Shown here: piece after piece, positions 4,678 through 6,081 of the stretch
Layout of the letters: each line of letters opens with the position of its first letter
Numbering within the stretch: the first letter of the stretch is position 1
Origin: a virus
Length of the DNA stretch: 15,960 bases
IMG/VR virus record: IMGVR_UViG_3300046832_002460
Strand: one strand, 5' to 3'
Made by a program: the position numbers and the translations under genes
The notes under the pieces: model-generated
The model's input: the letters and a program-made list of their open reading frames with translations, nothing else
What the model was told of the DNA's origin: nothing
Databases searched by the model: none

Positions 4678-6081
4678 ATGCAGCAAACACCGCGATTGGT
4701 AATTTTGGGATTTGGCAGCATTGGCAGTGGGTTGTTGCCATTGTTGCTGAATCATTTCCCAGCTGAAAACATCACCATAATTGGTGGGGATAATAGAAAC
4801 ATCAACATCAGTGCCAAATATGGTGTTGCTCATGTGATATGTGCTATAACACAACAAAATTACCAAACGGAACTGGCAAGATATCTCCAGGCTGGTTACA
4901 TGCTGGTGAATTTGAGTGTGAATGTCAGCAGTGAAGCTCTGGTGGAATGGTGTGAGAGCAAGGATGTTATGTATTTGGATACCTGTATTGAACCCTGGGA
5001 AGGCTATTACACCAATACAAAAATCAGTCCTGAACGTCGCAGCAACTACAGCCTCAGACAGGACATACTGGACATGAGGAGAACCTGGCAGAATCTGGGC
5101 AAGCCTCTGGGTGCCACAGCCATCATGGCACATGGTGCCAACCCAGGATTGGTGAACCATTTTGTCAAGAGAGCTCTTTTGCATGTTGCTGCCCAGGTAA
5201 ACCATGCAATATCTGCACCTCCCCAAACCCAGCAAGCATGGAGCAAACTGGCCCAGACATTGGGATTGAAGGTGATCCACATTGCTGAAAGAGACACTCA
5301 ACGTCCTAGAGCCCCCAAACAAAGAGATGAATTTGTCAATACCTGGAGTATTGATGGATTTGTCAGTGAGGGACTGCAACCCAGTGAAATGAGCTGGGGA
5401 ACGCACGAACAGATGTTTCCCACAGATGGCAACAGATTCAGCTGGGGATGCAAAACAGCCATTTGGCTGAACAGACCTGGATGTGTGACACAATGCCGCA
5501 GTTGGACACCCAATGAGGGAGAATATCGTGGATGGATCATCACTCACAATGAGAGTATCAGCATTGGTGATTATTTCAGCAATCATTATTACAGACCCAC
5601 TGTTCACTATGCCTATCACCCCTGTGACAGTGCTGTGCTGAGCATTCATGAAATGGCAGGTAAAAATTTCCAACAACAAACACATCAGCGTTTGATTGTC
5701 AATGAAATTGAGGATGGCATGGATGAACTGGGGGTGTTGTTGATGGGAACTTTCAACGGCAATCACTATGCCTACTGGTATGGCAGCCAACTGGACATTG
5801 ATACAGCCAGATCTCTAGCCCCCTACAACAATGCCACCAGCCTACAAGTGGTGGCCCCAGTGCTGGCAGGCATTTTGTATGCCATTGACAATCCCATGCT
5901 GGGTATTGTGGAAGCTGATGAACTGCCTCATGAACAAATCCTAGCCATAACAGATCCCTACATGGGGCAAATGACTGGCTCTTGGACTGATTGGACTCCA
6001 CTCAAAGATCGTGGCAGGTTGTTTGTGGAAGATGTGGACACAACTGATCCCTGGCAATTCAAAAATTTCCGAGTGGTGTAA
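4678..6081 (+). CDS. hss: Homospermidine synthase (bacterial/viral HSS, EC 2.5.1.44), 467 aa
   Basis: The N-terminal Rossmann motif is LVILGFGSIGSGLLPLL. VNLSVNVSS...YLDTCIEPWEGYY...GATAIMAHGANPGLVNHFVK is colinear with bacterial HSS. The RBS is AAAGGAG 8 nt before ATG. Confidence 0.9.
   Translation: MQQTPRLVILGFGSIGSGLLPLLLNHFPAENITIIGGDNRNINISAKYGVAHVICAITQQNYQTELARYLQAGYMLVNLSVNVSSEALVEWCESKDVMYLDTCIEPWEGYYTNTKISPERRSNYSLRQDILDMRRTWQNLGKPLGATAIMAHGANPGLVNHFVKRALLHVAAQVNHAISAPPQTQQAWSKLAQTLGLKVIHIAERDTQRPRAPKQRDEFVNTWSIDGFVSEGLQPSEMSWGTHEQMFPTDGNRFSWGCKTAIWLNRPGCVTQCRSWTPNEGEYRGWIITHNESISIGDYFSNHYYRPTVHYAYHPCDSAVLSIHEMAGKNFQQQTHQRLIVNEIEDGMDELGVLLMGTFNGNHYAYWYGSQLDIDTARSLAPYNNATSLQVVAPVLAGILYAIDNPMLGIVEADELPHEQILAITDPYMGQMTGSWTDWTPLKDRGRLFVEDVDTTDPWQFKNFRVV

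Follow-up and report, generated by a model that had tools for sequence, protein, structure and literature searches.

The viral stretch analysed here (IMG/VR record IMGVR_UViG_3300046832_002460; 15,960 nucleotides, hereafter the window) carries at positions 4678-6081 an open reading frame (ORF) that very probably encodes an active NAD+-dependent homospermidine synthase (HSS) of bacterial type, an auxiliary metabolic gene of a very large tailed phage. A previous examination of the letters and ORFs, without database searches (the sequence-only reading), had proposed at this place a complete bacterial-type HSS preceded by a strong ribosome-binding site of its own. Both proposals held, down to the exact coordinates of the frame and the Shine-Dalgarno site ahead of it (Table 1). 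The protein displayed the two-domain architecture of saccharopine-dehydrogenase-like enzymes, i.e. an N-terminal Rossmann NAD(P) domain (Pfam Sacchrp_dh_NADP, PF03435, residues 8-140; 92 bits, cut-off 25.1) and a C-terminal domain (Sacchrp_dh_C, PF16653, residues 153-433; 97.5 bits, cut-off 31), both above gathering scores. In a phmmer comparison with every PDB chain, all 14 distinct sequences below E=0.01 were homospermidine synthases (5e-138 to 3e-120). The matches came from Legionella (2PH5, 5e-138), Blastochloris viridis (4PLP/4XQ9, 1.6e-135) and Pseudomonas aeruginosa (6Y87, 3e-120), and the alignments spanned window residues 5-7 to 464-466; this match strength is far past chance. Only four further matches, unrelated and with E >=0.56, were recorded at E<=10. 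Neither carboxy(nor)spermidine dehydrogenases nor saccharopine or lysine dehydrogenases occurred among the PDB matches up to that value, so that the better matches to carboxynorspermidine or saccharopine dehydrogenases, which had been named beforehand as an argument against HSS, did not appear. No NCBIfam or PHROGs model matched the protein. Over trimmed alignment columns, it was 49% identical to the B. viridis enzyme (BvHSS) and 48% identical to that of Legionella. At the sequence level, the ORF is confirmed as a full-length bacterial-type HSS.

The active site was intact. Eight residues have been proposed to bind the substrate or to take part in catalysis in BvHSS (N162, E210, W229, E237, H296, E298, Y323 and D361; Krossa et al. 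2016, PMC4725965), and all were found in the window protein as N155, E204, W223, E231, H290, E292, Y311 and D349, respectively, according to a MAFFT alignment of 125 sequences. Likewise, the conserved ionic-slide residue E117 of BvHSS and Y123 in its track-and-trace loop (Krossa et al. 2016, PMC4725965) were kept as E105 and Y111. A check of NAD-binding and catalytic residues had been recommended by the sequence-only reading; with the GxGxxG motif and eight of eight BvHSS residues present, no residue loss was observed. BvHSS residue D94 corresponded to N82 in the window, at a position occupied by D, N, E or G across the 125 homologs (G in the Legionella enzyme), and V115 was replaced by C; N at 94 and C at 115 were common among the aligned bacterial HSS. 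In alignment A2, residues G11, F12, G13, S14 and I15 were invariant and the whole GxGxxG motif nearly so. This motif and all eight BvHSS residues were also kept in nearly all of the 49 members checked from the clade described below. Ratios of non-synonymous to synonymous substitution (dN/dS) amounted to 0.117 and 0.071 between the window gene and its two closest relatives (91% and 85% amino acid identity), and to 0.067 between these two relatives. Assemblies from NCBI, ENA, JGI and Logan together contained at least 17 contigs that encode an identical HSS protein, and the loci concerned were 99.9% identical to the window across shared parts. From these comparisons, the gene is under purifying selection and is taken to encode a working enzyme.

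Protein searches with the HSS yielded metagenomic clusters at 64-91% identity, followed by bacterial HSS at 61% at most. The window and 50 metagenomic clusters formed one clade (neighbour-joining bootstrap 200/200, calculated without the aberrant 634-aa sequence P0012). All eight clade members sampled (the window, P0001, P0002, P0007, P0011, P0031, P0035 and P0045) occurred in phage-like contigs, which were gene-dense, reached 462 and 485 kb, and contained mostly hypothetical proteins together with phage-type genes. Within this phage lineage the gene is stably inherited. The sister group of this clade (bootstrap 192/200) included a protein named alphaproteobacterial and P0050, whose contig (L009) is a bacterial chromosome, with TCA-cycle genes, sigma-54 and LexA around the HSS. 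Among 185,579 bacterial and archaeal species of GTDB, each represented by one genome, the closest cellular relative was 58% identical, and the top matches were mostly from Alphaproteobacteria (Acidocella, Reyranella, Rhodopila and others). The HSS of Ralstonia phage phiRSL1 and Achromobacter phage Motura shared only 42% and 37% identity, respectively, with that of the window, and both fell outside the clade and its sister group. Given this low identity and placement, their acquisitions look independent of that of the window. The simplest reading is that the ancestor of the lineage acquired the gene once, long ago, from an alphaproteobacterium-like donor, in an event separate from those of phiRSL1 and Motura. 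Scanning the IMG/VR viral contigs with the HSS protein uncovered no confirmed relative, and no match resulted when the complete window was compared by megablast with 50,697 phage records.

The features on which the present description is based are collected in Table 1.

Table 1. Features of the window, with positions, strand and supporting evidence.
Feature	Position	Strand	Evidence or remark
Homospermidine synthase (HSS) coding sequence, bacterial type, NAD-dependent, EC 2.5.1.44	4678-6081	+	ATG start, 467 aa
Shine-Dalgarno site AAAGGAG	4664-4670	+	7 nt ahead of the HSS ATG; read from sequence
GxGxxG dinucleotide-binding motif (Rossmann domain), codons G11-F-G-S-I-G16	4708-4725	+	read from translation
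Codon stretch with the eight catalytic/substrate-binding HSS residues	5140-5724	+	125-sequence MAFFT alignment including BvHSS
Candidate sigma-70-like promoter TTGACA-16-TATACT, upstream of ORF 4072-4539 and HSS	3916-3943	+	11/12 matches, weak
Release-factor-like gene, 3' remnant, last 50 codons	4512-4661	+	tblastn of L095 protein, 84% identity
TilS N-terminal (PP-loop) domain protein, 200 aa	7317-7919	+	TIGR02432 lysidine_TilS_N, 122.5 bits (equivalog cut-off 93.6); Pfam ATP_bind_3
Putative minimal malonyl-CoA decarboxylase (MCD)-like protein, GNAT fold, 146 aa	12106-12546	+	ATG start, AGGAG upstream
PTH2-type peptidyl-tRNA hydrolase homolog	12989-13456	-	Pfam PTH2, 29.2 bits (cut-off 23)
Homing endonuclease (HNH/NUMOD-type)	1296-1970	-	one of three
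Homing endonuclease (HNH/NUMOD-type)	3070-3816	-	PHROG 655, 1e-36
Homing endonuclease (HNH/NUMOD-type)	10770-11342	-	PHROG 655, 1e-43
Tail-fibre/tail-spike protein, C-terminal part, S74 chaperone domain	14890-15912	-	Pfam Peptidase_S74

The viral nature of the window was apparent from several of its genes. Its tail protein, which matched PHROG 23837 (virion structural protein, 3e-56) and PHROG 4636 (tail spike, 3e-42), is a viral hallmark. Homing endonucleases flanked the HSS gene both upstream and downstream, and homologs of huge-phage proteins were encoded at 7317-10449. A tRNA-Gln and a winged-helix (wHTH) protein were also recorded. GGAG-type Shine-Dalgarno motifs preceded about 9 of the 20 window genes, which fits a bacterial host with Shine-Dalgarno-led translation and argues against a eukaryotic giant virus. 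Cellular housekeeping genes were found neither in the window nor in the related loci L001-L008, L010, L013, L014 and L095. As for regulation, the promoter-like site of Table 1 is a weak lead rather than a finding, and a scan for promoters and terminators around the HSS gene gave site counts not above those of shuffled controls. Rfam revealed no riboswitch or other RNA element near the gene.

Strain-level variation was visible among the closest loci. L001 and L002 were 99.9% identical to the window, except that segment 2820-4024 was swapped for another cassette, in which a 280-aa ORF accompanied a tRNA-Arg(TCT). Mobile endonuclease cassettes are thus exchanged from strain to strain, and this turnover may be the reason for assemblies breaking off at 10-20 kb. 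A tRNA at 1044-1178 (plus strand; Rfam 44.8 bits, uncalled by ARAGORN) was 135 nt long and Leu-like, with an insertion of about 55-60 nt. At the same place, L003 (positions 149-231, in a contig otherwise 99.9% identical) had a normal 83-nt tRNA-Leu(CAA), so that the enlarged form could represent an intron-like insertion or a disrupted tRNA.

Another gene of the window (7960-10449, plus strand) coded for a protein of 829 aa homologous to the major vault protein of eukaryotes (MVP; Pfam MVP_shoulder 3.7e-19, and Vault_3), co-linear with residues 331-763 of rat and human MVP (PDB E-values down to 6e-17). Over its full length it was 37% identical to proteins of uncultured phages of 735 kb and 462 kb. 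The gene also adjoined the TilS-N gene in L095 (82% identity), and its GC content was about 54%, compared with 40-46% for the rest of the window. In a full-text literature search, the terms 'major vault protein' and 'jumbo phage' occurred together only in a Borg preprint.

Several genes near the HSS are related to translation and recurred across lineages whose HSS proteins were only 65-70% identical. The gene for the TilS N-terminal domain protein (TilS-N) was located 0.8-2 kb downstream of the HSS gene in five lineages (the window, L095, L005, L013 and L014). Its best phage matches, at 43-44% identity, came from uncultured phages of 634-642 kb and PA5oct-like Pseudomonas jumbo phages. The protein stands alone, without the C-terminal tRNA-binding domains of bacterial TilS; no tRNA-Ile(CAU) was found in the window. 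The PTH2 protein was 69-71% identical to ORFs near the HSS gene in L013 and L014, where the wHTH gene recurred as well. In the closest relatives, L095 and L096, an intact release-factor-like gene (PCRF and RF-1 domains, GGQ motif) stood just ahead of the HSS gene. Compared with L095, about 2.9 kb were missing from the window, a segment which in L095 also has GGACT-like and class II aldolase genes. ORF 4072-4539 was considered as the release factor itself and rejected; the remnant at 4512-4661 is in another frame. Together, the recurring TilS-N, PTH2, tRNA and release-factor genes suggest a role of the HSS in translation support.

Between the HSS and TilS-N genes, the window contains ORF 6354-7085 (plus strand, 243 aa), whose family is small and lineage-specific, with only 2 close homologs and 25 representatives in 1.8 billion proteins; it matched no Pfam, PHROG or NCBIfam model. 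A copy, 31% identical, was found just upstream of the HSS gene in L005. In that lineage (HSS 70% identical), the interval between HSS and TilS-N was occupied by an R2K-clade ATP-grasp gene (L005 11447-12247). ORF 6354-7085 was considered as a polyamine ligase or R2K ATP-grasp protein that had diverged, and this was dismissed, BLASTP having shown no similarity to the L005 R2K protein. A DAO-type FAD oxidoreductase and a GGACT-like gene (L005 3012-4757), both absent from the window, lay 5-7 kb upstream of the HSS gene. These R2K, DAO-type and GGACT-like genes may represent further amine or amide chemistry tied to the polyamine gene in L005.

Weak GNAT-like motifs had been noted in ORF 12106-12546 by the sequence-only reading, for which a polyamine acetyltransferase was conceivable. 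The ORF was recovered as placed and the GNAT fold was upheld; the acetyltransferase, on the other hand, was not favoured, malonyl-CoA decarboxylases being closest in both sequence and structure. When compared with polyamine N-acetyltransferases of SpeG/SSAT type, the protein shared the fold, but did not combine a closest affinity to diamine or polyamine acetyltransferases with the canonical general-acid Tyr. It scored 27.7 bits against the Pfam MCD C-terminal domain (cut-off 23.2). The family to which it belongs comprised 1,334 detected members, nearly all unannotated and many from marine contigs, with invariant motifs DPVRP, YTxW, TLSPxT and FHxxNGA and an almost invariant NFEY. Searched against PDB, the family profile found only MCDs (best 5e-5), and TLSP and FHxxNGA were aligned to the same motifs of bacterial MCD. 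In chain 4KSA these two motifs are 77 residues apart, which is the spacing of the Ser312/His389 catalytic dyad of R. palustris MCD, and the Ser and His motifs of the dyad were invariant in the family. The catalytic His of MCD stands in for the general-acid Tyr of canonical GNAT acetyltransferases (Froese et al.). A minimal malonyl-thioester decarboxylase-like enzyme is therefore the better hypothesis for this putative protein. Of the systems known, the catalytic (GNAT-fold) domain of MCD and the GNAT-like decarboxylases CurA, GphF and SxtA come closest to it. It differs from these in having only 146 aa; compared with MCD, it is devoid of the N-terminal helical domain and of an insert of about 65 residues between the two motifs. 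The gene was situated within 1.5-6 kb of the HSS gene in five of six divergent lineages (the window, L005, L008, L013 and L014). The family also occurs without HSS: a homolog was found among replication genes of Pelagibacter phage Mosig, with no polyamine gene nearby.

By analogy with B. viridis HSS, the phage enzyme would oxidise one putrescine at its bound NAD+, after which the aminobutyl unit would condense with a second putrescine as an imine. The same NADH would then reduce the imine to sym-homospermidine, with release of ammonia; were spermidine the donor, 1,3-diaminopropane would be released instead. In this way, the putrescine pool of the host would become triamine during infection. 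No gene for ornithine decarboxylase, arginine decarboxylase, agmatinase or a similar putrescine-forming enzyme was found within 10 kb of the HSS gene at any locus examined, so that putrescine must be host-supplied. The triamine would most likely serve to support protein synthesis by the phage, since the HSS travels with TilS-N, PTH2, tRNAs and the release-factor-like gene; a role of spermidine and homospermidine in translation has also been stressed (Li et al. 2023, PMC9992855). Charge neutralisation of a very large packaged genome would be the second possibility. A more complete scenario, which we propose tentatively and regard as less likely than not, is that an alphaproteobacterial-type HSS gene was taken up once by a lineage of very large phages, independently of phiRSL1 and Motura, and kept under purifying selection in a recurring set of translation-support genes (release-factor-like gene, TilS-N, PTH2 and tRNAs). 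Homospermidine would then be a dedicated triamine sustaining phage translation, and perhaps genome condensation, where host triamine supply or acetylation control is limiting.

A number of observations weigh against the main interpretation, an active HSS of a very large tailed phage, among them the missing putrescine-forming genes just mentioned. TilS-N and PTH2 were absent around the HSS gene in L008 and L010. The translation theme derives from gene neighbourhood alone, and shared ancestry of the accessory region would be an equally simple cause of the synteny. Neither capsid nor terminase genes turned up in the window or on the contigs with the exact HSS gene, since all of these contigs fall short of 20 kb. 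Finally, the HSS tree is a neighbour-joining distance tree built without a carboxyspermidine dehydrogenase outgroup.

Other explanations were weighed against that of an active phage enzyme. It is extremely unlikely that the gene is an ordinary host HSS, located on a bacterial chromosome or on a cellular contig that was binned in error. Such an origin would agree with the mainly alphaproteobacterial character of HSS, with the chromosomal copy (L009) in the sister group, and with the window's own contigs being short (10-20 kb) and showing no capsid or terminase gene. Yet the window contains three phage-type homing endonucleases, a tail-fibre gene with strong PHROG matches, and TilS-N and MVP-like proteins best matched by huge phages. 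Moreover, housekeeping genes were present in none of the eight clade loci sampled, and no relative above 58% was found in the GTDB species genomes, as compared with 64-91% across the metagenomic clade.

The product of the enzyme is a separate question. An HSS fold dedicated to carboxy(nor)spermidine, to saccharopine or lysine-related chemistry, or mainly to another polyamine (N1-aminobutylcadaverine or a longer analogue) is very unlikely. Carboxyspermidine dehydrogenase is indeed the enzyme from which HSS evolved, and HSS acts promiscuously in vivo (PMC9992855, PMC4725965), and two peripheral pocket positions of the window enzyme are unlike BvHSS (D94 to N, V115 to C). Against this, no structure of a non-HSS enzyme matched at E<=10, the eight catalytic and binding residues were retained together with E117 and Y123, and the residues found at positions 94 and 115 are common in the bacterial HSS alignment. 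Homospermidine might also be an intermediate which MCD-like, TilS-like or R2K enzymes use for a phage-specific conjugate or modification, such as a polyamine with an acyl group or peptide attached, or modified DNA or tRNA. Of six divergent lineages, five do keep the MCD-like gene 1.5-6 kb from HSS in spite of rearrangements, L005 has its R2K ATP-grasp gene between HSS and TilS-N, and hss of Motura is clustered with glutathionylspermidine synthetase. We consider this highly unlikely: the MCD-like family has more than 1,300 members and is found without HSS (Pelagibacter phage Mosig), its protein has decarboxylase-type Ser and His motifs and acetyltransferases are not its closest relatives. Furthermore, the window is without an ATP-grasp gene, ORF 6354-7085 shows no detectable similarity to R2K, and the PP-loop protein scores above the TilS N-domain equivalog cut-off. 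An active HSS of bacterial type, carried by a very large tailed phage, is accordingly the explanation retained here.

Phage HSS was already known, and the known picture of the enzyme and its action is unchanged by our results. They add a huge-phage lineage of the HSS gene that is separate from those known, well conserved and, apparently, widespread. Polyamines are needed for phage replication and translation, and viral polyamine enzymes reveal which host supplies limit infection. The presence of HSS beside tRNA-modification, peptidyl-tRNA hydrolase and release-factor genes provides a testable link between homospermidine and phage translation control. A full-text search of the literature on homospermidine together with huge phages gave nothing relevant.

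Compared with the bacterial enzymes of B. viridis (4PLP/4TVB), Legionella (2PH5) and P. aeruginosa (6Y87), the window HSS has a like length, the same two-domain architecture and NAD motif, the eight active-site residues, and E117 and Y123. It differs from them in being phage-encoded, in being 3-6 residues shorter in two surface loops, and in the Asn and Cys residues that replace D94 and V115. According to the sequence-only reading, viral HSS was known from chloroviruses and unusual in tailed phages. Reports of HSS cover PBCV-1, no fewer than 40 chlorovirus genomes and a number of Imitervirales, with two of the latter validated (Li et al. 2023, PMC9992855). Among the 50,697 phage records, tblastn of the HSS detected only phiRSL1 and Motura, with two records each. 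The phiRSL1 enzyme is functional and the Motura homolog is clustered with a glutathionylspermidine synthetase (Li et al. 2023, PMC9992855). The window resembles both in its bacterial-type HSS (ORF110 in phiRSL1), an auxiliary polyamine gene which in their case belongs to jumbo tailed phages of 221-231 kb. The HSS neighbours are different in each: phiRSL1 has NAD-salvage and Nudix genes at this place, Motura has glutathionylspermidine synthetase, and the window has TilS-N, PTH2 and tRNAs. PBCV-1 and the Imitervirales (Harvovirus, Tupanvirus) likewise encode a bacterially derived HSS, which makes homospermidine from host or viral putrescine. They are eukaryotic giant viruses, some of them with a full arginine-to-homospermidine pathway, whereas the host of the window virus is, judging from its Shine-Dalgarno sites and phage hallmarks, a bacterium.

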